The notes under the pieces: generated by a model
Seen by the model: the letters and a program-made list of their open reading frames with translations, nothing else
The model's database searches: none
What the model was told of the DNA's origin: nothing
Position numbers and translations under genes: made by a program
Assembly (NCBI RefSeq): GCF_056712565.1
Contig: NZ_CM160072.1
Length of the DNA stretch: 64,000 nt
Direction: 5' to 3' (one strand)
Part shown: piece after piece, positions 4,972-25,006 of the stretch
Layout of the letters: every line of letters begins with the position of its first letter
How positions within the stretch are numbered: position 1 is the stretch's first letter

Positions 4972-4977
4972 ATGCTG

Positions 4978-5000
4978 TAGCGAGAAACTGTTTCTCGCTA
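4978..5000. promoter_or_regulatory. perfect 23-bp palindrome TAGCGAGAAAC-T-GTTTCTCGCTA between the LacI-type gene stop and dnaB start; operator or terminator stem, function unknown
   Basis: Read directly: 11-bp arms pair perfectly around a single central T; lies 7 nt after the regulator stop and 44 nt before the dnaB ATG. Confidence 0.5.
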
Positions 5001-5043
5001 TACTCTCTTGTCCCCCATTCAACAGCAGGTAACACCATTCGTT

Positions 5044-6459: not shown

Positions 6460-6511
6460 TAATTATTTTATGAATTAGGTAATTAAAGCAAACACTTATC
6501 AAGGAACACTA

Positions 6512-7591: not shown

Positions 7592-7613
7592 TATTCGTCT
7601 CCAGGGAGGGACA

Positions 7614-8171
7614 ATGTCTTATTCAGAAATCGCCGCGTGTCTGGCATACGCGGTTTCCGTCTGGCTGGCTGCCAGAAACAATGTGCATACATGGTGGATC
7701 GGCATAATTGGCAGCATATTGTACGGCTGGGTTTTTTGGTCTGTGCAACTCTATGCCGACGTTACGCTCCAGTTATTCTTCATCGCGACCAGCATCACTG
7801 GCTGGATCCACTGGCTGAAAGGTCAGGGTGGCGACATCTTGCCGGTGCGCCGAACGCAAGCCAGTCACTTTTTCCTTTTGTTGCTCTGTGCTGTCGTCGT
7901 GGCAGGCGGTTACGGCTTTTTACTCCACACCTTTACCAATGCCTGGGCACCCTGGCTGGATTCGTTGATTTTGACCTTTAGCGTTCTGGCACAATTCATG
8001 TTGATGGGAAGACGTATCGAAAACTGGTTCGTCTGGTTAGCGGTGAATACCCTGGCAGTGCCACTGTATATGACGCGCGGTTTAAACCTGACCGCTGGCT
8101 TATATTTCCTGTTCTGGATTAACGCCTGGCATGGTTTGTATCAATGGCGCAAAGAGTTGCAAACATCATGA
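7614..8171 (+). CDS. PnuC-family nicotinamide riboside transporter homolog (compact, 185 aa)
   Basis: Blocks VQLYADVTLQLFFIATSITGWIHW and RRIENWFVWLAVNTLAVPLY align with E. coli PnuC (IQLYASLLLQVFFFAANIYGWYAW; RKYVENWLLWVIINVISVV) as I recall it; GGGAGGG SD; begins 22 nt after the alr stop. Confidence 0.75.
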   Translation: MSYSEIAACLAYAVSVWLAARNNVHTWWIGIIGSILYGWVFWSVQLYADVTLQLFFIATSITGWIHWLKGQGGDILPVRRTQASHFFLLLLCAVVVAGGYGFLLHTFTNAWAPWLDSLILTFSVLAQFMLMGRRIENWFVWLAVNTLAVPLYMTRGLNLTAGLYFLFWINAWHGLYQWRKELQTS

Positions 8172-9166
8172 AGCCTTTTGCAACGGGCCTGGTGGTTGGT
8201 AAATTCGCGCCTTTGCATTGTGGTCATGAAAAGTTGATCAATACCGCACTGGCGCAATGTGAAGAACTGTTCATCATCAGTTATTCCGTGCCGGAAATGC
8301 CTGACTGTGAACCTGAAAAGCGCCTGACGTGGCTGCAAGTGCGCTTCCCGCAAGCGACGATTTTGGTACTGACGCCAGAGCTTGTTGCGCGTTATAACTT
8401 ACCTGCCATACCGCATAACGATGCCGACATCCACCGTCATTATGTGGCGACGCTGTGCCTGCAGATATTACGCTGTCGTCCACATGCTGTATTTACTGCA
8501 GAAGACTATGGCGATGGCTTTGCTAACGTGCTGGCGCGGCGTTTTGCCCAACCCGTTGAACACGTTCGAATGGCGCGCCCAGTTGGCGATGAAGCGCCTT
8601 CGGGAACGCTTATTCGTTCCGATGTTCACCGCTATCGCTACATGTTGGCGAATGATGTTTATTACAGTTTCGTTCGCCGTATCTGTCTGCTTGGTGGCGA
8701 ATCTACCGGTAAAAGCACGCTTTCAAAAGCGCTGGCGGATGGGCTTGATACGGTGTATGTCGCTGAATTTGGCCGCGACTATTGGGAAGAAAAAAACGGA
8801 ATCTTAACCGCGGATGATTTGTTGCATATCGCCTGCGAACAGGTACGCCGGGAACAACAAGCAGAAGCTAATCACTATCTTATATGTGACACGTCGCCAC
8901 TCACGACCTTGTTCTATGCCCTTGATCAATATGGTCATGCTCCGCAAGAACTTCATCAACTGGCGGAGCGGGAATACTCTCTGGTGGTGCTTTGCGGCGC
9001 AGAATTTCCCTTCGTGCAGGATGGCACCCGGCAAGGAGAGGTATTTCGCGCACGGCAACAGGTGTGGTATGAACAGGAATTATCGCGCAGGAATATTCCT
9101 TATCTTTCTGTTTCGGGTTCGCTGCAAGAGCGACTGGGGCAAATTCTACATCGCCTTCCCGACTGA
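8168..9166 (+). CDS. NadR-like bifunctional NMN adenylyltransferase / ribosylnicotinamide kinase lacking the N-terminal HTH domain
   Basis: ORF-track ORF 8144-9166 trimmed to ATG 8168, which overlaps the upstream TGA (ATGA coupling); nucleotidyltransferase motif GKFAPLHCGH; Walker A GGESTGKST; same domain order as NadR without the DNA-binding domain. Confidence 0.75.
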   Translation: MKPFATGLVVGKFAPLHCGHEKLINTALAQCEELFIISYSVPEMPDCEPEKRLTWLQVRFPQATILVLTPELVARYNLPAIPHNDADIHRHYVATLCLQILRCRPHAVFTAEDYGDGFANVLARRFAQPVEHVRMARPVGDEAPSGTLIRSDVHRYRYMLANDVYYSFVRRICLLGGESTGKSTLSKALADGLDTVYVAEFGRDYWEEKNGILTADDLLHIACEQVRREQQAEANHYLICDTSPLTTLFYALDQYGHAPQELHQLAEREYSLVVLCGAEFPFVQDGTRQGEVFRARQQVWYEQELSRRNIPYLSVSGSLQERLGQILHRLPD

Positions 9167-9247
9167 CTTTGAACATCCACTCGATCTTCGTCTACTTCCG
9201 GTTTATTGTGTTTTAACCACCTGCCCGTAAACCTGGAGAACCATCGC

Positions 9248-10441
9248 GTGTTTCAAAAAGTTGACGCCTACGCTGGCGACCCGATTCTTACGCTTATGGA
9301 GCGTTTTAAAGAAGACCCTCGCAGCGACAAAGTGAATTTAAGTATCGGTCTGTACTACAACGAAGACGGAATTATTCCACAACTGAAAGCCGTAGCGGAT
9401 GCGGAAGCGCGCCTGAATGCGCAGCCTCATGGTGCTTCGCTTTATTTACCGATGGAAGGGCTTAACAGCTATCGCCATGCCATTGCGCCGCTGCTGTTTG
9501 GTGCGGACCATCCGGTACTGCAACAACAGCGCGTAGCAACCATTCAAACCCTTGGCGGCTCAGGGGCATTGAAAGTGGGTGCAGATTTCCTGAAACGCTA
9601 CTTCCCGGAATCAGGCGTCTGGGTCAGCGATCCTACCTGGGAAAACCACGTAGCAATATTCGCCGGGGCTGGATTCGAAGTAAGTACTTACCCCTGGTAT
9701 GACGAAGCGACTAACGGCGTGCGCTTTAATGACCTGTTGGCGACGCTGAAAACATTACCTGCCCGCAGTATTGTGTTGCTGCATCCATGTTGCCACAACC
9801 CAACGGGTGCCGATCTCACTAATGACCAGTGGGATTCCGTGATTGAAATTCTCAAAGCCCGCGAGCTTATTCCATTCCTCGATATTGCCTATCAAGGATT
9901 TGGTGCCGGTATGGAAGAGGATGCCTACGCCATTCGCGCCATTGCCAGCGCTGGATTACCCGCTCTGGTGAGCAATTCGTTCTCGAAAATTTTCTCCCTT
10001 TACGGCGAGCGCGTCGGCGGACTTTCTGTTCTGTGTGAAGATGCCGAAGCCGCAGGCCGCGTACTGGGGCAATTGAAAGCAACCGTTCGCCGCAACTACT
10101 CCAGCCCGCCGAATTTTGGTGCGCAGGTGGTGGCTGCGGTGCTGAATGACGAGGCATTGAAAGCCAGCTGGCTGGCGGAAGTAGAAGAGATGCGTACTCG
10201 CATTCTGGCAATGCGTCAGGAACTGGTGAAGGTATTGAGCACAGAGATGCCAGAGCGCAATTTCGATTATCTGCTTAATCAGCGCGGCATGTTCAGTTAT
10301 ACCGGTTTAAGAACCGCTCAGGTTGACCGACTACGTGAAGAATTTGGTGTCTATCTCATCGCCAGCGGTCGCATGTGTGTCGCCGGGCTTAACGCGCAAA
10401 ATGTGCATCGCGTGGCAAAGGCGTTTGCTGCGGTGATGTGA
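9248..10441 (+). CDS. tyrB: aromatic amino acid aminotransferase TyrB
   Basis: 397 aa from GTG 9248 ([14 protein letters not shown]...), matching the K-12 length; PLP-lysine context [16 protein letters not shown]. Confidence 0.9.
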
Positions 10442-10473: not shown

Positions 10474-10571
10474 CCTGACTCCAGCCATCCCCTACTATTC
10501 TGTCCCTTTTTTCGCCCACTTTTACATCATCTCTTTTCTATAAGTTTTTGAAAATTAGTGTTTTTAACTGT

Positions 10572-10587
10572 TGGTACGGATTGTGCA
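10572..10587 (+). promoter_or_regulatory. candidate sigma-54 (-24/-12) promoter for the 2-oxoglutarate dehydrogenase operon
   Basis: TGGTACGGATTGTGCA: GG and GC separated by 10 nt, two mismatches to TGGCACG-N4-TTGC; 36 nt upstream of the E1 ATG; an NtrC-family activator gene is in the same island. Confidence 0.55.
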
Positions 10588-10622
10588 GTAATGCGGCTGT
10601 CTATGACCATCAGGAGAAAAAC

Positions 10623-13367
10623 ATGGAGAACATGACCTCGCCCGGCACGCTGCTTAGTGGAGATAACGCGACCTGGCTTGAAGAGTACTACCAGACCTGG
10701 TTGCGTACGCCGGAACAACTCCCGGAAGACTGGCGGCGTTTTTTTCTTTCACCTGAACTGACTGTCCAAAGCGTATCCGGTGATAACAACGTCAGCGGTG
10801 CGACGTTAAAAAAACAGGCTGCGGTAATACAACTGATCAATGCCTGGCGCACGCAGGGGCATCTGCGCGCAAAGCTTGATCCACTTGGTTTGAATCCCCC
10901 AGCTGACGTTCCCTCCCTCCAGCCTGGTTTTTGGGGATTAAGCGAAGAAGACTTGTTGCAGGAGTTTAGCGTCACCTTTGGCGCACACACCACGCAAATG
11001 CCACTTAAGCAACTGCTTAACCTGCTGGAGCAAGCCTGGGCCGGTAGCCAGGCTTATGAACTTGCTCATCTGGAAAATCGTGAAGAAATCAACTGGTTGT
11101 TATCACGGATTGAGAGCAGCAATGCGCCACAAGCTGATGCCCAAACCTGCATTGCCCGTTTTGAAAAACTGATGGCGGCAGAGACGTTAGAGCGTTATCT
11201 GCATACCCGTTATGTTGGGCAGAAACGGTTTTCTCTGGAAGGGGGCGAAAGTGCAATCCCGGCGCTCGATACGCTGACAAAACGCCTGCGTGCGCAAGGT
11301 GTGGAGGAAATGGTCATTGGCATGGCGCACCGGGGAAGACTTAATGTTCTGGTTAATCTGTTGAATAAAGACCCGGCACAGCTTTTTGCTGAGTTTGAAG
11401 GCAAGCAGACGATCGGCAGTGGTTCAGGCGATGTGAAATACCACATGGGGTATTCCAGCAATCTGGAAACACCTGCCGGTTCGCTGCATGTGGCGCTGGC
11501 GTATAACCCCTCACATCTGGAGATCGTGAATCCGGTGGTGCTGGGCCAGGTGCGAGCCAGGCAGGAACGCCGTGGTGAGGATGGTCAGGCAAAAGTGGTG
11601 GGCGTACTTATTCATGGGGATTCCGCGTTGGGCGGCCTCGGCGTCAACCAAACCACGTTTAACTTATCGCAGACTCAGGGCTACGGCACTGGCGGTACGC
11701 TACATCTGGTGATTAACAATCAGATTGGCTTCACCACTTCCCGCTTGCAGGATATGCGTTCTTCACGGTACTGCACCGATATTGCCAAAATGGTAGCGGC
11801 CCCAATTATCCACGTTAATGGCGATGACGTTGACGCTGTTTGCCAGGTAATGGAACTGGCGTGCGAATGGCGAGACACCTTCCGGCGCGACATCATCATC
11901 GATATTTGCTGCTTCCGTAAGCACGGACACAACGAAAGCGATGAGCCACGTCTTACCCAGCCACAAATGTATCAGGCAGTGGATGCTCACCCTGGTACGC
12001 TCGCCCGTTATGGTGAATCTCTTGCCCGCCGCGGCCTGTTAACTCAGGCGCAACAAGATGAGATGACGGCACGCTATCGCGACTGGCTGGATAGCTGCCA
12101 GAAACGTGAACCGCAGCCTCTCAAACCTGCAATTCACTCTTTTAGCGCTAACTGGTATGGGTTGACCAACCCTCACTGGAGCGCCCCGGTATCTACGGCA
12201 TTGCCTCGGCAAAAGCTGGCAGCGTATGGTGAAATCATTTCTACACTGCCACCCGATGTGGTCGCACATCCTACCATTAAACGGCAACTGGCGTTACGCC
12301 AGGATATGGCCGCAGGTACTCAGCCAATAGACTGGGGAATGGCTGAAATGCTGGCCTATGCATCGCTTGTGGATGCGGGTGTTGGTGTGCGTCTTTCTGG
12401 TGAAGACTCAGGGCGTGGCACGTTCAGTCATCGCCATGCAGTGGTACATCATCAAACTGAAGCCCGTCGTTATCTGCCGTTACAGCATATCCGCGCTGGT
12501 CAGGCATCTTTCGATGTTTATGATTCGGTGCTTAATGAAGAAGCGCTCTTAGCCTTTGAATATGGCTATTCAACGTCTGCGCCTCAGCAACTGGTTATTT
12601 GGGAAGCGCAGTTTGGTGACTTTGCCAACGGCGCTCAGGTTGCTATTGACCAGTTTATCTCGTCTGGCGAAACCAAGTGGGATCGCTATAGCGGTTTAAC
12701 CATTCTTCTGCCGCATGGCTATGACGGACAAGGGCCGGAGCACTCTTCTGCGCGTCCTGAGCGCTGGCTGCAACTGTGCGCAGAAAACAACATGCAGGTG
12801 GTGATGCCCAGTGAGTCAGCACAAATGTTCCATTTGCTGCGCGGTCAGGCATTACGCCCAATGCGCAAACCGTTAGTGATAATGATGAGTAAGCGTTTAC
12901 TTCGGTTTAAAGGCGCTATGAGCGAGCTTTCTGAATTCACTGATGGCGCTTATAAACCGGTAGTCACCGATCCGCAATTGCATCAGTCCCAGAAAGTTAA
13001 GCGCGTTATTTTGTGTAGCGGCCAGGTCTATTACGACGTACTGGAAGCCCGTAAGCAGCGTGAGTGTGAAGATGAGGTAGCGATTGTTCGCCTGGAGCAA
13101 CTCTACCCGTTCCCGGTCGCAGAACTGAATGATGTTCTGGCGAGTTGGCCGAACTGCTGCGAATGGATTTGGTTGCAGGAAGAGCCAGAAAACCAGGGCG
13201 CGTGGCGGCAGATTCGTCATGAGCTGGCGGCACTGAAAATTAACACTCCTTACTGGCAGTATGCAGGCCGCCCGGCAGTGGCAGCTCCGGCGACAGGGTA
13301 TGGGCGTGTACATAAACAACAAATCGACGAATTTCTTGCTGCTGCGTTTGCAGATATTCAGCCATGA
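10623..13367 (+). CDS. 2-oxoglutarate dehydrogenase E1 component paralog (SucA-like)
   Basis: ORF-track ORF 10548-13367 (TTG) trimmed to ATG 10623 with AGGAGA SD; ThDP region HGDSALGGLGVNQTTFNLSQTQGYGTGGTLHLVINNQIGFTTS parallels SucA. Confidence 0.9.
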   Translation: MENMTSPGTLLSGDNATWLEEYYQTWLRTPEQLPEDWRRFFLSPELTVQSVSGDNNVSGATLKKQAAVIQLINAWRTQGHLRAKLDPLGLNPPADVPSLQPGFWGLSEEDLLQEFSVTFGAHTTQMPLKQLLNLLEQAWAGSQAYELAHLENREEINWLLSRIESSNAPQADAQTCIARFEKLMAAETLERYLHTRYVGQKRFSLEGGESAIPALDTLTKRLRAQGVEEMVIGMAHRGRLNVLVNLLNKDPAQLFAEFEGKQTIGSGSGDVKYHMGYSSNLETPAGSLHVALAYNPSHLEIVNPVVLGQVRARQERRGEDGQAKVVGVLIHGDSALGGLGVNQTTFNLSQTQGYGTGGTLHLVINNQIGFTTSRLQDMRSSRYCTDIAKMVAAPIIHVNGDDVDAVCQVMELACEWRDTFRRDIIIDICCFRKHGHNESDEPRLTQPQMYQAVDAHPGTLARYGESLARRGLLTQAQQDEMTARYRDWLDSCQKREPQPLKPAIHSFSANWYGLTNPHWSAPVSTALPRQKLAAYGEIISTLPPDVVAHPTIKRQLALRQDMAAGTQPIDWGMAEMLAYASLVDAGVGVRLSGEDSGRGTFSHRHAVVHHQTEARRYLPLQHIRAGQASFDVYDSVLNEEALLAFEYGYSTSAPQQLVIWEAQFGDFANGAQVAIDQFISSGETKWDRYSGLTILLPHGYDGQGPEHSSARPERWLQLCAENNMQVVMPSESAQMFHLLRGQALRPMRKPLVIMMSKRLLRFKGAMSELSEFTDGAYKPVVTDPQLHQSQKVKRVILCSGQVYYDVLEARKQRECEDEVAIVRLEQLYPFPVAELNDVLASWPNCCEWIWLQEEPENQGAWRQIRHELAALKINTPYWQYAGRPAVAAPATGYGRVHKQQIDEFLAAAFADIQP

Positions 13368-13399: not shown

Positions 13400-14554
13400 A
13401 TGATCGAAATTACTGTCCCTGTATTACCGGAATCTGTCACGGAAGGCACGCTGACAACCTGGTGTAAACAAGAAGGCGAGCACGTAAAACGCGATGATGT
13501 GATTGCCGAGCTGGAAACCGATAAAGTCATTCTGGAAATACCGGCCCCGCACGATGGCGTGTTAAGCAATATTATCGTCAGCGAAGGTAGCACGGTCACG
13601 TCCGCGCAACTGTTGGCGCATCTTAAGCCGCAAGCTGTCATAGAAGAAACCGTCACACCAGTCACCGAAACCCTGGCGATGCCTTCCGCACGGCTGGAGG
13701 CACAGCGTAGTGGTGTTGAACTTGCTGACGTTGCGGGGAGCGGGAGAAATGGACGTATCCTGAAAGAGGATGTACAGCGCGTTACTCCTGCACCAGTCAT
13801 TCAGCCTGAACGGGTGGCGGAGATCGCGCCAGCTAAACCCTTGACACCGGGTGCTCGTCAGGAACGTCGTGAGCCGATGTCGCGCTTACGTCAGCGAATT
13901 GCTGAGCGTCTGCTGGCTTCCCAACAAAATAACGCCATTCTTACCACATTCAACGAAGTAAACATGCAGAGCGTGATGGATTTACGCACCCGCTGGAAAG
14001 ATCGTTTTGCCGAGAAGCACGGCGTGAAGCTGGGCTTTATGTCCTTCTTTGTTAAGGCCGTTACCCGGGCGCTGGAGCGCTTCCCTGTAGTGAATGCCAG
14101 CGTTGATGGCAACGAGATTATCTGGCGTGATTATTGCGATATCGGCATTGCAGTGAGCAGCAACCGCGGCCTGGTAGTGCCTGTGTTACGCAATGCGCAA
14201 TCACTCTCTTTGGTGGAAATTGAACGGCAAATTGCCGAATACGCCACACAGGCACGCAATGGCAAATTGCCGCTGGAGGCGTTACAGGGCGGCACGTTCT
14301 CTATCACCAACGGCGGTACTTTTGGTTCGATGATGTCAACGCCAATCATTAACCCGCCGCAGTCGGCCATTCTTGGGATGCATGCCATCACGCCGCGCCC
14401 GGTCGCAGAAAACGGCCAGGTTGTTATTCGTCCCATGATGTACCTTGCTCTCAGCTATGACCATCGCATTATCGATGGTCAGGAAGCCGTGCAGACATTG
14501 GTGGCAATACGTGAGCTACTGGAATCACCGGAACAACTGTTGCTGGATCTTTAA
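13400..14554 (+). CDS. dihydrolipoyllysine-residue succinyltransferase E2 paralog (SucB-like)
   Basis: 384 aa; lipoyl-lysine motif [14 protein letters not shown]; catalytic [11 protein letters not shown]; AAGGAGA SD. Confidence 0.9.
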
Positions 14555-14565
14555 GGAGGGCGCCG

Positions 14566-15984
14566 ATGAGTACAATTTTTGATGTGGCAGTTATGGGGGG
14601 TGGGCCAGGTGGTTACGTAGCGGCACTGCGGGCTGCGCAGAATGGGCTTTCCGTAGTATGTATTGATGATGGTGTTAATGCACAGGGCGAACCTTCGCCG
14701 GGCGGTACGTGTCTCAATGTCGGCTGTATTCCGTCAAAATCGTTGCTGCAATCTTCCGAGCTGTACGCGCAAGTACAGCATGAGGCAAGCATTCATGGCG
14801 TTAACGTTGAAGGCGTATCTTTCAATGCTGCCGCGATGATTCAACGTAAAGATGCCATAGTAAGCCGCCTGACAATGGGCATCAGCTTGCTGTTTAAGAA
14901 AAATAAAGTGAAGCACTTGTGCGGCCTCGCAACGTTAGAACGTGCTCAGGATGAGATTTGGCAATTACGCGTAAACGATCAACACATTCACGCCCGTAAT
15001 GTAGTGATTGCAACAGGTTCTCAGCCGCGTCAGCTGCCTGGCGTTACCATTGATAATCAACAGATCCTCGACAATCGTGGCGCCCTGGCATTGAGCGAAG
15101 TGCCGCCGCGTCTCGGTGTGATCGGCGCTGGCGTGATTGGCCTTGAACTGGGGTCTGTGTGGAATCGGGTCGGTTCAGATGTCACGCTGCTGGAGATGGC
15201 GCCAACGTTCTTGCCTGCACTGGAAGCTCGCCTGTCGAACGAAGTCCGTAAAGCAATGATTGCCAGTGGGATGAAAATGCAACTGGCAGTAGAGATTGAG
15301 GCTATTGAACAACGGGATGACGGTGTGCATGTGCGCTGGCGGCAGGGTGAGAAGCGAGAAGAAAGCCGCTTCGATAAATTAATTCTTGCCATTGGACGTG
15401 TACCGCGACTTTCTGGTGTCGATCTCGTGCAACTCGGTCTTGAAGCCGATAACCGTGGCGGTATTGCCGTCGATAACTTATGCCGTACCGGGAAAGCCGG
15501 GCTGTGGGCAATTGGTGATGTCGTGCGAGGGCCGATGCTGGCGCATAAAGCGATGGCTGAAGGTGTGGTGGTTGCGGATCAAATTGCCGGACTGGCGGTA
15601 GAGCCGATTAATTTTGCGCTGATCCCTTCGGTGATTTACACCCAACCGGAAGTTGCGTGGGTAGGGGAAAACGAGGCCTCACTGAAAGCCGCTGGCAGAG
15701 TCTTTAACAAAGGAAATTCTCTGTTTGCCGGTAACGGTCGCGCCTTAGCATTAGGCCAGGAAGGTGGGCGTTGCACGTTATACAGCGATAAACACACTGA
15801 CCGCGTACTTGGCGGAGCGATTGTTGGCCCGCAGGCATCGGAGCTGATCAATGAAATTGCGCTGGCGATGACTTTTAGCGCCTCTGGCGAGGATATTGCC
15901 TGTGCGATCCATGCGCATCCGACCTTAAGCGAAGTCATCCACGAAGCAGCAATGGCCTTGAATAATAAAGCATTACACGGATAA
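14566..15984 (+). CDS. dihydrolipoyl dehydrogenase E3 paralog (Lpd-like)
   Basis: 472 aa; FAD fold GGGPGGYVAALRAAQ; redox-active disulfide CLNVGCIPSK. Confidence 0.9.
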   Translation: MSTIFDVAVMGGGPGGYVAALRAAQNGLSVVCIDDGVNAQGEPSPGGTCLNVGCIPSKSLLQSSELYAQVQHEASIHGVNVEGVSFNAAAMIQRKDAIVSRLTMGISLLFKKNKVKHLCGLATLERAQDEIWQLRVNDQHIHARNVVIATGSQPRQLPGVTIDNQQILDNRGALALSEVPPRLGVIGAGVIGLELGSVWNRVGSDVTLLEMAPTFLPALEARLSNEVRKAMIASGMKMQLAVEIEAIEQRDDGVHVRWRQGEKREESRFDKLILAIGRVPRLSGVDLVQLGLEADNRGGIAVDNLCRTGKAGLWAIGDVVRGPMLAHKAMAEGVVVADQIAGLAVEPINFALIPSVIYTQPEVAWVGENEASLKAAGRVFNKGNSLFAGNGRALALGQEGGRCTLYSDKHTDRVLGGAIVGPQASELINEIALAMTFSASGEDIACAIHAHPTLSEVIHEAAMALNNKALHG

Positions 15985-16005: not shown

Positions 16006-17175
16006 ATGAATTTACATGAGTATCAGGCCAAATCGTTACTGGCTGGCATGGGGATGCCGTGTCCAAAAGAGATAGCCATCCAACAGATTTCGCAACTGGC
16101 AGATGCCTGGCAACATATTGCTTGCCCGAGTAAAGGCGCGGTACTTAAAGCGCAGGTACATGCTGGTGGGCGCGGTAAAGCTGGCGGCGTAAAAGTGCTT
16201 AAGCAGCTGCCGGAAGCACAGGCTTTTGTACAGCAAATGTTGGGATCGCAACTGGTGACTTATCAGACCGGGCCAGAAGGGCAGTATGTCAGCAGTATTT
16301 TGCTGTGCGAAAACATCTATCCGGTACGCCAGGAACTCTATTTTGGCATGGTGGTGGATCGTGAAAGCCAGCGGGTCACGTTTATTGTCAGCCCGGAAGG
16401 TGGTGTGGAAATTGAAAAAGTCGCCCATGAGACACCGGAGAAAATCAGCAGTGTCAGCATTGATCCACTGACAGGCGTGCAGCCTTGCCATATCCGCGAA
16501 ATGTTTGCTGTTCTGCAACTGGAACACGGGCTATTTGCTACCTTTAGTCGCCTGGTTAATCAGGCGTGGAAAGCCTTTAACGAACTGGATTTCGCCCTGC
16601 TGGAAATTAACCCTCTGGTGTTGCGGGAAACGGGCGAATTTATGTGTGCAGACGCGAAAGTATCGCTGGATGATAACGCGCTGTATCGTCACCCGGAACT
16701 CCAGGTGCTACGTGATGAAACCCAGGAAGATCCACGCGAAAGCCAGGCAGCGAAGCTTGATCTTAATTATGTCTCGCTGGACGGAAATATCGGCTGCATG
16801 GTCAATGGTGCAGGGCTGGCTATGGCAACCATGGACATCATCAAGCTATACGGTGAACAACCCGCAAACTTCCTGGATGTTGGCGGTGGCGCAACCCAGG
16901 AGCGCGTCAGTGAAGCCTTTCGGCTGATTGTTTCCGACAGCAAAGTGAAAGCCATTCTGGTTAATATTTTTGGTGGGATTGTCCGTTGCGACATGATCGC
17001 CAGAGCCATTATTCATGCTCTGAATGAGGCCCGTATCACCCTGCCTGTCGTGGTGCGTCTCTCCGGTAATAACGCTGCCGAAGGGCAGCGGTTACTGGCA
17101 GAAAGTGGCCTGACGGTGGAAGCCGTCAATTCTCTGGATGATGCCGCTAAACGCATCATTGCGTTACTGAATTAA
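16006..17175 (+). CDS. succinyl-CoA synthetase beta subunit paralog (SucC-like)
   Basis: 389 aa; N-terminus MNLHEYQAKSLLAGMGMP typical of the ATP-grasp SucC family. Confidence 0.9.
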   Translation: MNLHEYQAKSLLAGMGMPCPKEIAIQQISQLADAWQHIACPSKGAVLKAQVHAGGRGKAGGVKVLKQLPEAQAFVQQMLGSQLVTYQTGPEGQYVSSILLCENIYPVRQELYFGMVVDRESQRVTFIVSPEGGVEIEKVAHETPEKISSVSIDPLTGVQPCHIREMFAVLQLEHGLFATFSRLVNQAWKAFNELDFALLEINPLVLRETGEFMCADAKVSLDDNALYRHPELQVLRDETQEDPRESQAAKLDLNYVSLDGNIGCMVNGAGLAMATMDIIKLYGEQPANFLDVGGGATQERVSEAFRLIVSDSKVKAILVNIFGGIVRCDMIARAIIHALNEARITLPVVVRLSGNNAAEGQRLLAESGLTVEAVNSLDDAAKRIIALLN

Positions 17176-17187
17176 CAGGAGGTTAAG

Positions 17188-18060
17188 ATGAGCGTTTTGA
17201 TCAACAAACACACGCGGGTACTGGTGCAGGGCATTACCGGCAAAAACGGCACATTTCATACAGAGCAGGCTATTGCGTATGGCACGCAGATTGTGGGTGG
17301 AGTGACGCCAGGTAAGGGCGGGCAACGGCATCTGGATCGCCCGGTTTTTGATTCAATGAAAGAAGCGATGCGACAAACTGAGGCTGATGCCAGCGTGATT
17401 TATGTGCCTGCACCGTTTGTGCTGGATTCTGTTGTTGAGGCTATTGAAGCTGGCGTCAAATTGGTTGTGGTGATCACTGAAGGTGTACCGACACTGGATA
17501 TGGTGAAAGTTCGTCGGCTGCTTGACTGCCACCCGGATGTGCGGCTGATTGGGCCAAACTGCCCAGGAGTTATCACGCCGGGCGAGTGCAAAATCGGGAT
17601 TATGCCTGGTGAAATCCACCGCCCAGGGCGTATTGGGATTGTTTCCCGCTCCGGTACATTAACCTACGAAGCTGTAGCGCAAACCACGGCGCTGGGACTT
17701 GGGCAATCCACCTGTATTGGTATTGGCGGCGATCCGGTTCCGGGGACTAACTTTATTGATGCGCTGCGTTTATTCGAAAATGATCCGCAAACAGACGCGG
17801 TAATTATGATCGGTGAAATTGGTGGTAATGCGGAAGAACGGGCTGCGGAATTTATTCGTCATGAAATGAATAAACCGGTCGTAGGTTATATTGCCGGTGT
17901 TACTGCACCAAAAGGAAAACGCATGGGGCACGCCGGAGCCATTATTTCTGGCGGTAGCGGCAGTGCAGAGGATAAATTCCGTGCGTTCGATAAAGCAGGC
18001 ATGGCATGGACAAGAAACCCGGCGTTGCTTGGCGAAACGTTATGGAATGTTATTAAGTAA
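17188..18060 (+). CDS. succinyl-CoA synthetase alpha subunit paralog (SucD-like)
   Basis: 290 aa; CoA-binding N-terminus [14 protein letters not shown]; phosphohistidine region [17 protein letters not shown]. Confidence 0.9.
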
Positions 18061-18078
18061 TCCATAAATGAATATCAA

Positions 18079-18102
18079 GGGAGCATATCGCTCCCTTTTT
18101 TT
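18079..18102 (+). terminator. rho-independent terminator ending the dehydrogenase/synthetase operon
   Basis: GGGAGC-ATATC-GCTCCC followed by an 8-T run, 19 nt after the sucD-like stop. Confidence 0.65.
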
Positions 18103-18215
18103 ATCTGTGTGGTAAGGGAATCATCTTTTAATAACTGTGCGGAAAACCGCGCATAAAATAAAAAGGATAAATAGCTAACTCATTAAATAACAAAGCGTTA
18201 TTAAAAAATTAAAGA

Positions 18216-18231
18216 TGGCATAGCTCCTGCA
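18216..18231 (+). promoter_or_regulatory. candidate sigma-54 (-24/-12) promoter for the transporter / Ldh_2 operon
   Basis: TGGCATAGCTCCTGCA: GG-N10-GC, close to consensus; about 40 nt upstream of ATG 18272. Confidence 0.6.
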
Positions 18232-18271: not shown

Positions 18272-19771
18272 ATGTCATCAATATCCCATGGCGCACCACA
18301 AAAGCGTCGAATTATCCCTAATCCCGGCCTGTGGTTGGCGATCATTGCCGGAATTATTATTACCCTTCTGCCACTGGGCGATACCTTGCCCGTCGCCGGA
18401 CAAAATATGATCGCCATTCTGGTGTTTGCCATTATTGTCTGGATCAGCGAAGCGATGGATTACACCGCCAGTGCAATTGTTATTTCCGCACTGATTATCT
18501 TTATGGTTGGTTTTGCCCCGGATATGAATCACCCGGACACGATCCTTGGCACCGCGAAAGCGCTGAAAATGACTCTGTCGGGTTTTTCTAATTCTGCTCT
18601 GGCGCTGGTGGCAGCAGCAATGTTTATCGCGGCGGCAATGACCATTACCGGGCTGGATAAACGCATTGCGCTGTTTACTATGTCGAAAATAGGTGCCAGC
18701 AGCCGCAGCATTATTATCGGTGCCATTGTGGTGACCATCGTCCTGAGCCTGGTTGTACCCAGTGCCACTGCCCGTACGGCTTGCGTGGTGCCGATTATGA
18801 TGGGGGTCATTGCGGCATTTAAGGTGGATAAACATTCACGTTTAGCGGCGTCAATGATGATTGTTATCGCCCAGGCGACCAGTATCTGGAACGTTGGTAT
18901 TCAAACTTCGGCGGCGCAAAACCTGCTTTCTATCGGTTTTATCAATAAAACTTTCGGCGCCGGGCATTCTGTCAGCTGGCTTGACTGGCTGTTAGCGGGC
19001 GCGCCCTGGAGCCTCACCATGTCGGTGATCCTCTATTTCCTCGCACGTAAATTGTTGCCGCCAGAAACGGAAGCTGTTGAAGGGGGGAGCGAGGCCATTA
19101 AAAAAGCACTCGCAGAGTTAGGGCCAACCACCGGTAAAGAAAAACGCTTGATCGGTATTTCGCTATTGTTACTGCTCTTTTGGTCTACTGGCGGAAAATT
19201 ACACAGTATTGATACCACCTCTGTCACCCTTGCCGGACTGGCGATTATGTTGCTGCCAGGCATCGGTGTAATGAGCTGGAAAGAGGTCGAAAAACGTGTG
19301 CAGTGGGGCACGTTGCTGATGTTTGGTATTGGTATCAGCCTGGGGTCCACGCTGCTTGATACGCAGGCAGCTTCATGGATGGCGAACTATGTGGTGAAAG
19401 GTTTTGGTCTTGATGGCTTGCCATCATTAGCCATCTTCGCGATTCTCGCCGCTTTCTTGATAATTATTCACCTGGGGTTTGCCAGTGCCACTGCGCTAAC
19501 TGCCGCATTGCTGCCCATCCTGATTAGCCTGTTAAGCAGTCTGCCGCCAGAACTCGGCGTTAACCCGGTCGGCATGACCATTCTGCTCGCCTTCAGTGTC
19601 AGTTTTGGCTTCATCCTGCCGATTAACGCGCCACAAAATATGGTGTGTATGGGTACGGATACCTTCACGCCACGCCAGTTTACCCGTGTGGGACTGTACC
19701 TGACGGTAATCGGCTACCTGTTGTTGCTACTGTTTGCCGCCACCTGGTGGAAAATTTTAGGTCTAATGTGA
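18272..19771 (+). CDS. anion permease (DASS/CitT-like ion-transporter superfamily), probable 2-oxoglutarate/dicarboxylate uptake
   Basis: ORF-track ORF 18266-19771 (GTG) trimmed to ATG 18272; polytopic hydrophobic 499-aa protein; island context. Confidence 0.75.
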   Translation: MSSISHGAPQKRRIIPNPGLWLAIIAGIIITLLPLGDTLPVAGQNMIAILVFAIIVWISEAMDYTASAIVISALIIFMVGFAPDMNHPDTILGTAKALKMTLSGFSNSALALVAAAMFIAAAMTITGLDKRIALFTMSKIGASSRSIIIGAIVVTIVLSLVVPSATARTACVVPIMMGVIAAFKVDKHSRLAASMMIVIAQATSIWNVGIQTSAAQNLLSIGFINKTFGAGHSVSWLDWLLAGAPWSLTMSVILYFLARKLLPPETEAVEGGSEAIKKALAELGPTTGKEKRLIGISLLLLLFWSTGGKLHSIDTTSVTLAGLAIMLLPGIGVMSWKEVEKRVQWGTLLMFGIGISLGSTLLDTQAASWMANYVVKGFGLDGLPSLAIFAILAAFLIIIHLGFASATALTAALLPILISLLSSLPPELGVNPVGMTILLAFSVSFGFILPINAPQNMVCMGTDTFTPRQFTRVGLYLTVIGYLLLLLFAATWWKILGLM

Positions 19772-19782
19772 GGAAACCAACG

Positions 19783-20856
19783 ATGTCATTACAAATTGCT
19801 GTTGAAAAAGTGCGTTGGTTAGCTGCCGGGCTGCTGGAACTTAATGGCTGTGATGCCGATATCGCTCAGGATGTGGCGGAACATATGATTGAAGCGGAAC
19901 GTTATGGCTTTGCCAGCCACGGCGTCACGCTGCTACCGAAATATCTGGAAAATATCGCTCGTGGCGATGTAACCGCGAATGCCCGCCCGGAATGCTTAAC
20001 AAGTGAAGGTAATTTACAACGTTTTCATGCCCACAATGGCTTTGGTCAACACGCCGGAAAAGTGGCGGTAAATGCTGCCATCGAACAAGCAAAACACCGC
20101 GGTTTTTGCCTGTTAACGTTGTGCCATGCGCATCATTTAGGGCGTATGGGGCATTACGGGCAAATGGTTGCTGATCAAGGCCTGGCGATGCTGGCCATGA
20201 GTAACGTCACCGGGCGTCCGGCACTGGTCGCCCCGTGGGGCGGTGCGGAACCGCGTATGACCACTAACCCTTTCTGCTTTGCCTGGCCGTTCAGTGATGG
20301 GCGTCCGCCGATTCTGGTTGATTTTGCCACCAGTAGCATGGCGCTAAATAAAGCACGGGTAATGTCGTCCACCGGGAAGCAGGCCGCGCCGGGACAATTG
20401 ATCGATGCACAGGGGAATCCAAGCAATGATCCTGGGGTGTTATTCAGCAATCCTCCAGGGGCGTTACTGCCATTTGGTGAGCATAAAGGATTTGGCCTGG
20501 CACTGATGATTGAAATGATGGCGGGGATCTTATCTGGTGGTGACACGATCGCCGAAGATCATCAGACGGATGGATCTGCGCATAATCATCTTTTTGCGTT
20601 GATTATCGATCCTGATCAATTCACCGATCTGGCAGGGGAGAAAGGGCAGTTCTTTGCGGATTATCTGTTAGCTACGCAGCCTCAACCTGGCGGCAATCCG
20701 GTGATTTACCCCGGTATGCCAGAAGCTGCCAACCGGGAACGCAATGCGAAGATGATTACGATCCCGGTATCATTCTGGTCCTGGATAGTTGAACATTACG
20801 CCCGCAAAGGTATCGATTTGGGGTTACATCCTCAGGAATCAGCATTAGCTGGATGA
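19783..20856 (+). CDS. Ldh_2-family (malate/L-lactate dehydrogenase 2 type) 2-hydroxyacid/2-oxoacid oxidoreductase
   Basis: ORF-track ORF 19645-20856 trimmed to ATG 19783 (GAGGAAA SD; the upstream extension would overlap the transporter gene); 357 aa. Confidence 0.7.
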   Translation: MSLQIAVEKVRWLAAGLLELNGCDADIAQDVAEHMIEAERYGFASHGVTLLPKYLENIARGDVTANARPECLTSEGNLQRFHAHNGFGQHAGKVAVNAAIEQAKHRGFCLLTLCHAHHLGRMGHYGQMVADQGLAMLAMSNVTGRPALVAPWGGAEPRMTTNPFCFAWPFSDGRPPILVDFATSSMALNKARVMSSTGKQAAPGQLIDAQGNPSNDPGVLFSNPPGALLPFGEHKGFGLALMIEMMAGILSGGDTIAEDHQTDGSAHNHLFALIIDPDQFTDLAGEKGQFFADYLLATQPQPGGNPVIYPGMPEAANRERNAKMITIPVSFWSWIVEHYARKGIDLGLHPQESALAG

Positions 20857-22203
20857 TTCTGGTCGATAAACTTGCGGTTGAATCTGATGTTTGTTGAGTT
20901 TGTCATATAAAGTCTTGCGCGGCAGCTGTAATAGCCGCGCTGTCAAACTGACTTGGCCTTCCGTTTGTCGCAGCATATCTTCGATTAACTTTTTCTCGAA
21001 AGCATCAATGCAGGCGGTAAGGCCACTCTCTTCTTGCTGAGTCATTGGCACTGGCTGGTGGTGGGTCAGTAAACCGAGAACAAAACGCTCTGCATTGTGT
21101 TTAAGTTCACGTACATTGCCAGGCCAACTTTGTGATTGCAACCAGGCCAGTAACATGGGAGAAATATCAGGCAGAGGACGATTATATTTTTGTGCCGCCT
21201 GACTGGCGAACCAGTAAAACAGTTCAGGGATATCTTCTCGTCGCTGGCGTAGAGGTGGAATATTCAAGCTAACCACATTCAGACGATAATAGAGATCGAG
21301 ACGAAACAGATGTTCTTCGCTGCGACGCAGTAAATCTTCCTTGGTCGCTGCAATAACACGGCAATTCACCGGAATTAATTGATTGGCACCTAATCGTTCA
21401 ATGGTTCTTTCCTGCAATACACGTAGCAGTTTTACCTGCATTCCTGATGGCATTCCCTCTATTTCATCGAGAAATAACGTACCACCATTTGCATGTTCAA
21501 TTTTTCCAATACGCTTTTTAACCGCACCGGTAAATGCGCCCGCCTCATGACCAAATATTTCGCTTTCAAACAACGTTTCTGGTAAGCCTGCACAGTTTAA
21601 GGCAACAAACTGCCCCTGACGGCGGGTACTCCAGTGATGCAGCATTCTGGCGACGACTTCTTTACCACAACCTGTTTCACCATAAATAAGGACATCGGCA
21701 CCGGTATCTGCGACATTAAGGATCATTTTACGCAGTTGTTGCATCTGCGGACTACGACCAATCAGCACCGGGCCATTTTCCTGTTGCAGATTCGCCAGTA
21801 ATTGCTGATTTTCTAAAACCAATCGCCGTTTTTCTACCGCTCTGGCAATAATACTCAATAATTTATCTGAGCTACTTGGTTTCTCAATGAAATCGAATGC
21901 ACCATTACGCATGGCATCCACCGCCATTTCCACGTCACCGTGTCCGGTAATTAAAATAACCGGAATTTTGCTATCCATTTCGTTGATGTAACTGAGGAGC
22001 TCTAGTCCTGATATTCCAGGTAACCTGACATCGGTCAGTATAATAATGTTGGCTTGACTTTGAATAAGGGGAATACTGTGTTCTGCATCGCAACAGGAAA
22101 TAACACGATAACCAGCCAGCGTGAGCGTTTGTTCACAGGCAAAACGTACATCGTCACTATCCTCAATATAAACTATAGTAATTTCACTGGATTTATTATT
22201 CAT
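20845..22203 (-). CDS. kguR: sigma-54-dependent response regulator (NtrC family); matches KguR of the alpha-ketoglutarate utilization island
   Basis: 452 aa; receiver domain (IILTDVRLPG); AAA+ Walker A GETGCGKE; GAFTGA motif; C-terminal HTH. Gene name recalled from the UPEC literature, not verified here. Confidence 0.85.
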   Translation of the reverse strand: MNNKSSEITIVYIEDSDDVRFACEQTLTLAGYRVISCCDAEHSIPLIQSQANIIILTDVRLPGISGLELLSYINEMDSKIPVILITGHGDVEMAVDAMRNGAFDFIEKPSSSDKLLSIIARAVEKRRLVLENQQLLANLQQENGPVLIGRSPQMQQLRKMILNVADTGADVLIYGETGCGKEVVARMLHHWSTRRQGQFVALNCAGLPETLFESEIFGHEAGAFTGAVKKRIGKIEHANGGTLFLDEIEGMPSGMQVKLLRVLQERTIERLGANQLIPVNCRVIAATKEDLLRRSEEHLFRLDLYYRLNVVSLNIPPLRQRREDIPELFYWFASQAAQKYNRPLPDISPMLLAWLQSQSWPGNVRELKHNAERFVLGLLTHHQPVPMTQQEESGLTACIDAFEKKLIEDMLRQTEGQVSLTARLLQLPRKTLYDKLNKHQIQPQVYRPESSS

Positions 22204-24016
22204 GTTCTTCTCCCCATTCAGGCCAGGTTAATGTCATTACTGCGCCGCCTTCAGGATGATTACTGGCGTGGAGTGCGCCGTTCGAATTTCGGACAATTTC
22301 GCTGACTATTGCCAGTCCCAACCCCATTCCTCTACGTTTAGTGGTAAAAAATGGTTCAAATATGCGATCGACAACTTCAGGTGCAAAACCGCCACCGCTG
22401 TCTTTAATGGTAATAATAACTTTGTTATTTGCCTGGCGAATGGCGATATCCAGTCGTTTGTAAGAGCTACCTTCCATAGAATCTAAGGCGTTGCTAATTA
22501 AATTACTGAATATCTGTTCAAGACCGAGCTCATCGCAATTGACAAATAACGGCATGGATGGGGCTTTTATTCGTCGCTCAATGTTATTTTTCTCCATGCT
22601 GTGATTAAGTAACGCCACGGCGCTATACATCACTTTGATGACATCGGCAGAACCTTTAGGTACGCGATGGCGCGAGGCAAATGCTTTAAGTTCGGAAATG
22701 AGCTGCGTCATCCGCTCAATCACTGAAATAATGTGTTTCAGATTCTGTTCAACCTGCGGATACATCTCTTTTTTTAGCATAGTACGCGCGTTATCAGTAA
22801 GTGCGTGAATGGCGGCTAACGGTTGATTTTGTTCATGGGCAATTTCGGTTGCCATCTGTCCAAGCGCCGCCAGTTTGCTGGACTCTGCCAGTTCACTACG
22901 CGTAATTTGTAATACTTGTTCAGCCTGACTGCGCTCTTTTATCTCCTGTATTAATTTTTGATTGATCAATTCCAGGGCAGATGTACGCTCTTTAACCTGT
23001 TTTTCTAATGTTTCATTCGCCAGTGTTAATAATTGTTGTGCATGAGATCGCATTCTCCAGTATTTAATAAATAACAAAAACAGCAGGTAAATAATTAGTG
23101 TAATGACTAACGAAATAGCCCATGACCAGTACAGGTTATCTAAGGGGACCATAATTGTCATTTTCCAGTTAAATTCTGGAATGGCTATTTGTTGCGTATA
23201 ATATTGCGGGAATAAACAGAGTTGTTCTTTTTTATCTTTCAGGAAAGTAAAATTGCTCACGGTATAACAGGGATAATAATCCGCCGGTAAAAGATTGTCG
23301 AGACTATATTGACGGGTAGATTGTAGTTTTTGTTTTGCCTGAACAGGTAACGGTTGCAGTGTTCGCATTCGCCATGGCGATTTTGAACTTAAAAATATAA
23401 TCCCATGTTCATCATTCACGATAATATTTTCAGGACCTTCGGCCCATGCTTTTTCAATTTCATTAAGACTTATTTTTACTACTACAACACCGACAATTTT
23501 TCCTTTATCTTTTATACTTGTAGAGAGGAAGAATCCCGGTGTATTTGTAGTGCTACCAATACCGTAAAAGCGTCCATTTAAGCCAGACATGGCGTGTTTA
23601 TAATAGGGGCGATAGCTATAATTTTGCCCTACATAGCTGCCGGGGTCCTGCCAGTTGCTAGAAGCGATGGCCTTACCTTGGGTATCCAGAATAAATATTG
23701 CTGCGGTTTTGAGTTGAGTATTGAAATGTGCAATTCGTTGATTGAGTTCGCTGGACGTCATATCGTCAGGCGTAATTACCGCCTGACGGATGATATGGTC
23801 TGTTGAGAGCATATAGGGTAAAACATAAAATTGCTCGATGGTGGAATATAATGTGGACTTATACATTTCAAGCCGCATTTTATCGGTACCGGACAAGGTA
23901 TTAAAACGCAAGTGCAAAAAAGCGATTGAAACCGCGAGCATGATAAGAAAAAGTGAAATGCTTGTAATGTGAAATCGCCATTTGTTCTTAAATATATAAT
24001 TCCACGATATTTTCAT
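22196..24016 (-). CDS. kguS: sensor histidine kinase (DctB-like, periplasmic sensing domain); matches KguS
   Basis: 606 aa; two TM segments flanking a roughly 270-aa periplasmic domain; H-box ATEIAHEQNQPLAAI; ATPase G-box DSGGGF; stop overlaps the kguR start by 8 nt. Confidence 0.85.
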   Translation of the reverse strand: MKISWNYIFKNKWRFHITSISLFLIMLAVSIAFLHLRFNTLSGTDKMRLEMYKSTLYSTIEQFYVLPYMLSTDHIIRQAVITPDDMTSSELNQRIAHFNTQLKTAAIFILDTQGKAIASSNWQDPGSYVGQNYSYRPYYKHAMSGLNGRFYGIGSTTNTPGFFLSTSIKDKGKIVGVVVVKISLNEIEKAWAEGPENIIVNDEHGIIFLSSKSPWRMRTLQPLPVQAKQKLQSTRQYSLDNLLPADYYPCYTVSNFTFLKDKKEQLCLFPQYYTQQIAIPEFNWKMTIMVPLDNLYWSWAISLVITLIIYLLFLLFIKYWRMRSHAQQLLTLANETLEKQVKERTSALELINQKLIQEIKERSQAEQVLQITRSELAESSKLAALGQMATEIAHEQNQPLAAIHALTDNARTMLKKEMYPQVEQNLKHIISVIERMTQLISELKAFASRHRVPKGSADVIKVMYSAVALLNHSMEKNNIERRIKAPSMPLFVNCDELGLEQIFSNLISNALDSMEGSSYKRLDIAIRQANNKVIITIKDSGGGFAPEVVDRIFEPFFTTKRRGMGLGLAIVSEIVRNSNGALHASNHPEGGAVMTLTWPEWGEEHE

Positions 24017-24196
24017 TCATCATCCATTGAATGCATTTATATTTATCATCAGTATATTCCCTGAACAATGTTTGCGAGAACCAAAAGAGTGCCATTGTGT
24101 GAATGTGTAAGCAGAATAACCGTGGCAATGTGTGGTTTATCGCACAGGTATTCCAAATGTGATCATGCTCTTTTTATGTGACAAATCCGCAGATAA

Positions 24197-25006
<810 letters not shown>

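Follow-up and report, generated by a model that had tools for sequence, protein, structure and literature searches.

What does an Ldh_2-family oxidoreductase contribute to an island dedicated to the anaerobic use of alpha-ketoglutarate (KG)? This question is raised by the open reading frame (ORF) at positions 19783-20856 (+ strand) of the stretch analysed here, a window of 64,000 nucleotides from contig NZ_CM160072.1 (RefSeq assembly GCF_056712565.1). The window is from an Escherichia coli of the extraintestinal pathogenic (ExPEC) type and the ORF is c5039 of strain CFT073. The locus is the published island c5032-c5041 of uropathogenic E. coli (UPEC), inserted between tyrB and aphA, with c5038 encoding the carrier and with KguR and KguS as regulators. 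Gene c5039 sits between the DASS gene c5038 and kguR, in the part of the island that adjoins aphA, and is preceded by a sigma-54 promoter and a KguR site. Gene and gene order are the same as in CFT073 (Cai et al. 2013, PMC3694859; PMC5318444; PMC8716947); operon structure, KguR site and sigma-54 promoter also agree, and no difference was found. In mice, the Kgu island adds to the fitness of UPEC in bladder and kidney; among its components, c5039 alone has no assigned role. The reading favoured here, to which we give a probability of roughly 0.4, is that C5039 acts as an NADH-reoxidising KG reductase, i.e. a redox valve balancing the KG dehydrogenase of the island, with 2-hydroxyglutarate as its product. 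The c5038-c5039 operon itself is already in the literature; the phylogeny, the conservation of the gene pair and an overlooked metabolomic signal are new to this study.

The reading frame extends from an ATG at 19783 to a TGA at 20854-20856 and encodes 357 amino acids without internal stop. A longer version starting from GTG 19645 (403 amino acids) was discarded, as it overlaps c5038 and as homologs and RefSeq begin at 19783. The product matched Pfam model Ldh_2 (PF02615) over nearly the full profile (positions 2-330 of 333, E 4.5e-94, 315.7 bits, cutoff 38.8), which bore out the family proposed in an earlier note made from the sequence alone. RefSeq labels the identical 1074-nt coding sequence, found at 100% identity in ExPEC genomes, as 'Ldh family oxidoreductase'. 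The ratio of nonsynonymous to synonymous substitution rates (dN/dS) was 0.05 against the E. albertii ortholog, indicating a real gene under selection. In comparisons with Citrobacter and Klebsiella indica, for which dS had reached saturation, it was 0.04-0.06. The 2.8-kb transporter-dehydrogenase segment was 100% identical to ExPEC and avian pathogenic E. coli (APEC) chromosomes, e.g. ATCC 11775, S88, UM146 and IMT5155. It was present in 1045 of 5426 complete E. coli genomes, all 1045 with a full-length Ldh_2 gene. Since the gene for the E1 component of the KG dehydrogenase, kguSR and the Ldh_2 gene each occurred in 1044-1050 E. coli genomes, essentially the same set, the island is inherited as a single unit.

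The position of C5039 within the Ldh_2 family was examined by means of profile scores, pairwise identities and a neighbour-joining tree with 200 bootstraps. The best NCBIfam model was the YbiC-type PRK10098, although the score remained below its cutoff (280.1 bits, cutoff 336). Scores were also below cutoff for PRK13260 (YiaK; 147.2 bits, cutoff 316), for TIGR03175 (AllD; 131.5 bits, cutoff 496.2) and for NF040650, where 140 bits against a cutoff of 500 argued against membership among the L-sulfolactate dehydrogenases (ComC/SlcC). Identity to C5039 amounted to 34% for HcxB/YbiC, 28% for YiaK and 27% for AllD; it reached 45% for Cupriavidus necator Ldh, 48% for a Bordetella homolog and 51% for a Paraburkholderia homolog. 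A clear separation was observed in the tree, where C5039 and betaproteobacterial proteins, including C. necator H16_A0666, formed one clade (99.5% bootstrap), outside of which fell HcxB, the HcxB-like proteins, AllD and YiaK. Within this clade, the gammaproteobacterial sequences linked to Kgu genes formed a subclade, again with 99.5% bootstrap support.

The better known relatives of C5039 could be set aside one after the other. AllD, the (S)-ureidoglycolate dehydrogenase, has the fold family and the cofactor and catalytic residues in common with C5039, but this identity was ruled out by its score, by its own set of substrate residues, by the tree and by gene context, since C5039 is surrounded by KG genes and not by allantoin genes. 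YiaK (DlgD, 2,3-diketo-L-gulonate reductase; PDB 1s20, E 1.7e-35) is a member of the same family but, unlike C5039, is encoded in the yiaK-S sugar-acid operon together with a TRAP transporter; score, 28% identity, context and tree all excluded it. A grouping with AllD- or YiaK-type enzymes, considered in the earlier note, was thus contradicted by identities of 27-28%, scores below cutoff, replaced AllD residues and the 99.5% split. HcxB/YbiC, annotated as 'hydroxycarboxylate dehydrogenase B', was the best match among solved structures (PDB 2g8y, E 1.5e-52) and displays the same SHG...P-x-Y and HH-x-GR motifs. Work by Sevin and colleagues from 2017, also reflected in UniProt entry P30178, is said to have found that HcxB reduces 2-oxoglutarate in vitro. 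Yet orthology was rejected, given the score below cutoff, the 34% identity, the position on the opposite side of the 99.5% split and the gene context: a DASS neighbour was found neither at the hcxB locus of K-12 nor at that of an HcxB-like relative.

At the residue level, the cofactor and catalytic positions defined family-wide from AllD (His44, His116, Thr156, Pro158, Asp174, Lys224 and Gly306; PMC3527362) were all conserved in C5039 (H46, H118, T161, P163, D180, K235 and G311), and they were kept in 14 of 14 gamma-clade and 19 of 19 beta-clade sequences. The AllD substrate residues Arg48, Ser140, Asp141, Met251 and Arg259, on the other hand, are replaced by L50, R145, P146, D259 and H267. 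The best explanation of these observations is that C5039, a member of the 'Alcaligenes eutrophus Ldh' branch of Ldh_2, is a 2-oxoacid reductase that is able to catalyse its reaction and depends on NAD(P)H. The Kgu-linked and Burkholderiales clades were fixed for different residues at 28 positions, some of them at active-site positions. Examples are K53 (N or T in Burkholderiales), which adjoins the equivalent of AllD Tyr52, H267 (T), which occupies the position of AllD Arg259, and M312 (E), a neighbour of the cofactor glycine. Taken together, these three residues may weakly suggest a shift to a more electropositive pocket in the Kgu-linked clade.

The closest characterised relative is the Ldh of C. 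necator, a 349-residue 'L-lactate dehydrogenase' that matches H16_A0666, the protein listed as NAD(P)H-dependent L-lactate dehydrogenase (L-LDH) of strain H16. It shares the 99.5% clade and 45% identity with C5039, and its gene lies 13 nt 3' of an orthologous DASS carrier gene whose product is 63% identical to C5038. (The latter gene carried no precomputed Pfam label and was recognised as encoding a DASS carrier by comparison with C5038.) Both H16_A0666 and c5038-c5039 are induced by low oxygen or anaerobiosis; unlike the Kgu island, however, the C. necator locus is devoid of kguSR, of a second KG dehydrogenase and of a sigma-54 promoter. The two enzymes further differ in that activity of the C. 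necator Ldh was characterised on pyruvate and in the 28 positions mentioned above, including K53, H267 and M312. According to a review, C. necator ldh is upregulated at 3% oxygen, and its deletion raises polyhydroxybutyrate levels, which was interpreted as a block of the pyruvate-to-lactate conversion. As H16_A0666 is a reductase induced by low oxygen, a reductive NADH sink is the one documented role in the ortholog group of C5039. The A. eutrophus ldh gene was reportedly described as a novel LDH type by Jendrossek and colleagues in 1993, and the original enzymology of C. necator Ldh is said to be that of Steinbuchel and Schlegel from 1983.

The most consistent feature of C5039-like genes was their association with a carrier gene. 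In the locus survey, which took one genome per species and in which the best 80 of 150 confirmed loci were analysed, an orthologous DASS gene (57-99% identity) was located directly 5' of the Ldh_2 gene and on the same strand in 74 of the 80 loci, with a spacing of 10-16 nt (11 nt in the window). Gamma- and Betaproteobacteria both had the pair, as did a sister lineage, where it is accompanied by a GapR neighbour, and an endosymbiont genome of 822 kb. At nine gammaproteobacterial loci (E. albertii, three Citrobacter, Klebsiella indica, Entomohabitans, Vibrio, a Vibrio-like contig of a metagenome-assembled genome (MAG) and Pectobacterium), it stood together with kguS, kguR, a second KG dehydrogenase and a sigma-54 promoter, none of which was found at the 65 pair-bearing loci of Burkholderiales. 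In Vibrio, the pair and the dehydrogenase genes lie on opposite sides of kguSR, with the pair left intact (16-nt gap). We read this distribution as that of an old two-gene unit to which, in some Gammaproteobacteria, a spare KG dehydrogenase was added along with a succinyl-CoA synthetase and a two-component system that senses KG. Conservation of the pair at 74 of 80 loci and its integrity in the rearranged Vibrio island argue that the function of the enzyme is tied to the cargo of the carrier, and C5038 moves KG. The pairing also offers a testable function for widespread genes that are annotated just as 'DASS symporter' or 'Ldh family oxidoreductase'; for the classic 'lactate dehydrogenase' of A. 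eutrophus, it points to a possible role linked to dicarboxylates.

The six exceptions (Variovorax Ldh_2 copies beside pirin genes and Bordetella ansorpii, in which the carrier is replaced) look like paralogs or secondary losses. Some Variovorax, e.g. Variovorax sp. N23, possess an additional Ldh_2 copy, with pirin genes and dnaE on its flanks. In B. ansorpii (7424-10000 of the locus stretch), the HAD...Ldh_2/rodA synteny is kept and about 2.5 kb without DASS domain take the place of the carrier. In Bordetella parapertussis and Candidatus Kinetoplastibacterium galati, the pair is located between argB and the rodA-mrdA-mreBCD cluster. The latter organism is a trypanosomatid endosymbiont with a reduced genome of 822 kb, in which the pair occupies positions 4493-7050 of the locus stretch; that it was kept in so heavily reduced a genome implies an important role, possibly in passing dicarboxylates or reducing equivalents to and from the host. 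The Vibrio-like contig is binned as MAG 'Flavobacteriia bacterium HF-Dia32', but its gene order and its identities to the query are the same as those of Vibrio sp. Y2-5, and it is probably a mis-binned Vibrio.

The carrier encoded upstream had been described in the earlier note as an alpha-ketoglutarate transporter co-transcribed with the dehydrogenase. Transport of KG is confirmed by published genetics, which established C5038 as the anaerobic KG importer, separate from the MFS carrier KgtP (PMC5318444). The type of carrier had to be corrected, since profile matches exclude KgtP and place the 499-residue product among DASS/CitT-like carriers (PF00939, E 1e-117; TIGR00785, 240.9 bits, cutoff 198.6). 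Its identity to the CitT and TtdT antiporters and to YbhI is 27-31%. The same authors found that C5038 groups with Burkholderiales carriers, did not remark on the linkage to a dehydrogenase, and suspected that C5038 exports succinate (data not shown in PMC5318444). C5038 is probably a KG:succinate exchanger. In this respect c5038-c5039 resembles the CitT citrate:succinate and TtdT tartrate:succinate modules, in which a CitT-family carrier is encoded beside anaerobic enzymes for its substrate. Those operons encode lyases or dehydratases, whereas c5038-c5039 is predicted to provide a 2-oxoacid reductase instead.

The operon linkage proposed in the same note proved correct. Gene c5038 (18272-19771, + strand) ends 11 nt before the ATG of c5039, the GAGGA Shine-Dalgarno sequence of which overlaps the c5038 stop codon. 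From 19316 to 21200, no terminator-like site was detected on the + strand, hence none between the two genes nor after c5039, and reverse transcription PCR in CFT073 demonstrated their co-transcription (PMC3694859). The operon is induced only by KG, in dependence on KguS and KguR, and not by 2-hydroxyglutarate, succinate, fumarate or glutamate (PMC3694859). It further depends on RpoN and is induced under anaerobiosis by way of FNR and ArcA, with the transcription start site of c5038 at -30 (PMC5318444). Electrophoretic mobility shift assays showed binding of KguR to a c5038 promoter fragment, the published site being of the form TGTGCG-N8-CGCACA (PMC3694859), and according to published data c5039 is among the transcripts that depend most strongly on KguR. 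In the window, a KguR-type inverted repeat TGTGCG-N8-CGCATA was found by pattern match 5' of c5038 (18136-18155, + strand), followed by the sigma-54 -24/-12 promoter of the operon, TGGCATAGCTCCTGCA (18216-18231, + strand), which lies 5' of the transporter gene and was the sole match in the window. Relative to the transporter ATG, a sigma-54 site at -57 to -61 was conserved in 9 of 9 gammaproteobacterial loci, and it was absent from the 65 Burkholderiales loci.

KG dehydrogenase together with succinyl-CoA synthetase converts KG into succinate, CO2 and ATP, with one NADH formed per KG. In the mechanism considered here, the island enzymes would perform this conversion on imported KG, and C5039 would reoxidise the NADH through reduction of a second KG to 2-hydroxyglutarate, giving the net conversion of 2 KG, ADP and Pi into succinate, CO2, 2-hydroxyglutarate and ATP. 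Judging from the stereochemistry of the family, the L/(S) form of the product would be expected. C5038 would probably exchange external KG for the products, possibly including the reduced one. When no respiratory acceptor is available, NADH must be reoxidised and, by the stoichiometry of the pathway, KG would be the sole oxidant at hand without extra oxidative steps. The island encodes no NADH sink besides the candidate C5039, and reoxidation of NADH is a role that would suit a 2-oxoacid reductase expressed together with the importer.

The published metabolomics of a CFT073 kguR mutant, grown anaerobically on glycerol and KG, contain a signal on which the authors did not comment: alpha-hydroxyglutaric acid was about 6-fold lower in the mutant (log2 fold change (log2FC) -2.59, P 5.8e-5), a larger drop than that of succinate (log2FC -1.66; PMC8716947, Table 2). 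Such a KguR-dependent 2-hydroxyglutarate pool is consistent with a redox valve, but is not specific to it. The earlier note had thought of a redox side reaction, and this idea, taken as a reaction on KG, gained indirect support from the low-oxygen reductase relative, from the 74 of 80 pairing and from the 2-hydroxyglutarate decrease. In the same table, 4-hydroxybutyric acid was lower in the mutant as well (log2FC -1.84), again without comment by the authors (PMC8716947); this drop hints at a second reductive side product during anaerobic KG use, arising by reduction of succinate semialdehyde.

If C5039 is such an NADH sink, it would explain how ATP can be obtained from KG in the absence of a respiratory acceptor and would predict bacterial production of 2-hydroxyglutarate at infection sites. 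A bolder extension would make the Kgu island a self-contained KG dismutation (fermentation) module, in which C5039 is a dedicated KG reductase, C5038 exchanges KG for both products, UPEC growing on KG in the oxygen-poor renal tubule releases L-2-hydroxyglutarate, and the DASS-Ldh_2 pair is an ancient, portable valve of Burkholderiales and their endosymbiotic relatives, letting an oxo-dicarboxylate in and its reduced form out. We consider this full scenario doubtful; were it true, the L-2-hydroxyglutarate released would be an inhibitor of host KG-dependent dioxygenases. Should C5039 instead prove to be a lactate or malate dehydrogenase of the usual kind, the finding would be routine.

Several points weigh against C5039 as a KG reductase. 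E. coli already possesses enzymes able to form 2-hydroxyglutarate, and loss of KG import, together with promiscuous enzymes of the host, could account for the decrease in the kguR mutant. Glutamate fell equally in this mutant, and the 'D-' label given to hydroxyglutarate stems from an achiral liquid chromatography-mass spectrometry method and assigns no chirality (PMC8716947). The C. necator Ldh, sole characterised member of the clade, reduces pyruvate and no dicarboxylate. The pair is retained by 65 Burkholderiales that lack a dedicated KG dehydrogenase, so that its ancestral role need not be KG dismutation. The anaerobic growth tests of 2017 all contained trimethylamine N-oxide (TMAO) as electron acceptor (PMC5318444), which would have masked a requirement, if there is one, for an NADH sink inside the cell; the growth legend of 2013 is silent on TMAO (PMC3694859). 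In the literature naming c5039, neither an enzyme assay nor a single-gene deletion was found, the deletions reported being the c5038-c5039 double and the c5038 single mutants (PMC3694859; PMC5318444), and a search for literature linking Ldh_2 or UPEC to 2-hydroxyglutarate yielded nothing usable, as was the case for HcxB biochemistry and for the Ldh of Kinetoplastibacterium.

Among the other explanations, the one with the best precedent holds that C5039 is an L-lactate dehydrogenase, i.e. a pyruvate reductase serving as general fermentative NADH sink, and that adjacency to the carrier was inherited without relation to the substrate. The 99.5% clade and the 45% identity shared with H16_A0666, annotated as L-LDH, speak in its favour, as does the interpretation of the C. 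necator ldh deletion as blocking the pyruvate-to-lactate conversion at low oxygen. With an L-lactate dehydrogenase as nearest characterised enzyme, pyruvate stays a live alternative substrate. Yet DASS carriers move di- and tricarboxylates, and the pairing was kept at 74 of 80 loci; E. coli already has LdhA; and the 28 clade-specific substitutions relative to the Burkholderiales enzymes include active-site positions. Pyruvate is moreover reached from KG only via further NADH-yielding steps and would therefore be a poor sink with KG as sole substrate. On balance, this explanation appears unlikely.

A catabolic role was also considered, in which C5039 would oxidise imported L-2-hydroxyglutarate or L-malate and thereby widen the diet of the island. 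Several Ldh_2 enzymes, e.g. AllD and ComC, are reversible, c5039 is co-transcribed with an importer, and the downstream KG dehydrogenase could pull an unfavourable oxidation. However, the operon does not respond to 2-hydroxyglutarate, succinate, fumarate or glutamate, malate, fumarate and succinate support normal growth of island mutants (PMC3694859), and 2-hydroxyglutarate is up, not down, when the operon is expressed (PMC8716947). Oxidation would also add NADH just when the cell is limited for acceptors. The suggestion of the earlier note that 2-hydroxyglutarate is a physiological input is disfavoured for these reasons, namely that the compound is no inducer and that its oxidation would add NADH under anaerobiosis, and a catabolic role as a whole seems improbable.

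Similarly improbable is an oxaloacetate reductase (type-2 malate dehydrogenase) feeding a reductive branch to succinate, which C5038 would then export. The Ldh_2 family owes its name to malate/lactate dehydrogenases, C5038 appears to export succinate (PMC5318444, data not shown there), and the title of Pos et al. 1998 relates carriers of the CitT type to the plastid 2-oxoglutarate/malate translocator. Against it, such an enzyme would be redundant with E. coli Mdh, itself active under anaerobiosis, and oxaloacetate does not lie on the route from KG to succinate, so that reductive carboxylation and citrate lyase would be needed. For the A. eutrophus enzyme, oxaloacetate is an inhibitor rather than a good substrate. 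A pyridine-nucleotide-bound transhydrogenase acting between a 2-hydroxy and a 2-oxo acid, as malate-lactate transhydrogenase (MLTH) does in Veillonella, or a DpkA-type imine reductase is very improbable, for although both activities occur in Ldh_2 and the DpkA structures 1wtj/2cwf match C5039 (E 1.8e-34), no specific similarity was seen, the MLTH clade of Vpar_1595 is reported as restricted to Veillonella/Veillonellales, DpkA is a more distant match than YbiC and the adjoining carrier moves dicarboxylates, not cyclic imino acids.

The remaining island genes of the window agreed with the published descriptions, in which the island enzymes are required for anaerobic growth on KG (PMC3694859; PMC5318444). 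On the + strand, they comprise the c5032-type E1 of the second KG dehydrogenase (10548-13367, with a mechanical ORF start; RefSeq '2-oxoglutarate dehydrogenase E1 component'), the E2 dihydrolipoyl succinyltransferase (13400-14554; NF004309, 551 bits; Pfam 2-oxoacid_dh, Biotin_lipoyl and E3_binding), the E3 dihydrolipoyl dehydrogenase, which carries out the NADH-producing step (14566-15984; TIGR01350, 481.7 bits), and the beta (16006-17175; NF001913, 531.5 bits) and alpha (17188-18060; NF004230, 469.7 bits) subunits of succinyl-CoA synthetase. A KguR-type inverted repeat, TGTGTG-N13-CGCGCA, was matched in the c5032 promoter (10374-10398, + strand) and corresponds to the published site form (PMC3694859). 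An intrinsic terminator-like hairpin with T-run (18077-18097, + strand) marks the end of the c5032-c5037 operon, in agreement with the published two-operon structure (PMC3694859). On the - strand follow kguR (c5040; 20845-22203), coding for a sigma-54-dependent response regulator (Pfam Response_reg, Sigma54_activat and HTH_8), and kguS (c5041; 22196-24016), coding for a histidine kinase of the dCache type that senses KG (Pfam dCache_1, HisKA and HATPase_c; both PMC3694859). Gene aphA adjoins kguS on the side away from c5039.

The GC content of the kguR-kguS region (21000-24500) was 0.38-0.47, compared with 0.51-0.55 in the metabolic genes of the island, and this AT-richer composition suggests that the regulatory and metabolic halves differ in compositional history. 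A third KguR-type repeat, TGTGTG-N6-CGCACA, TGTGTGGTTTATCGCACA, was matched in the kguS-aphA intergenic region (24129-24146, + strand), where it fits the published autoregulation of KguR at the kguSR promoter (PMC8716947). A fourth, weaker match lies inside aphA (24292-24309, - strand). Genes c5039 and kguR converge with a 12-nt overlap (20845-20856); the same overlap was observed in Pectobacterium, and a gap of about 500 nt in Vibrio. Because no terminator-like site follows c5039 on the + strand up to 21200, strong KG-induced transcription of the operon could run antisense into kguR-kguS, and such read-through would be a possible negative feedback.

Some variation was recorded among E. coli matches to the region. 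An apparent second allele of c5038, seen as a 95-99% identity band in the genome matches, turned out to reflect only about 1% divergence in c5038. Plasmid carriage of the region was likewise rejected, as only two doubtful 'plasmid' records were retrieved from the plasmid collection. These are NZ_CP048308.1 (27 kb) and CP054241.1 (834 kb), both labelled as non-mobilizable plasmids and containing the c5038-c5039-kguR segment; most likely, they represent misassigned replicons or pieces of a chromosome. In NZ_CM143885.1 (E. coli strain E12), c5038 matched at two places, the best one covering 55% and annotated as 'SLC13 family permease', and in this strain the transporter gene is probably disrupted and c5039 intact.

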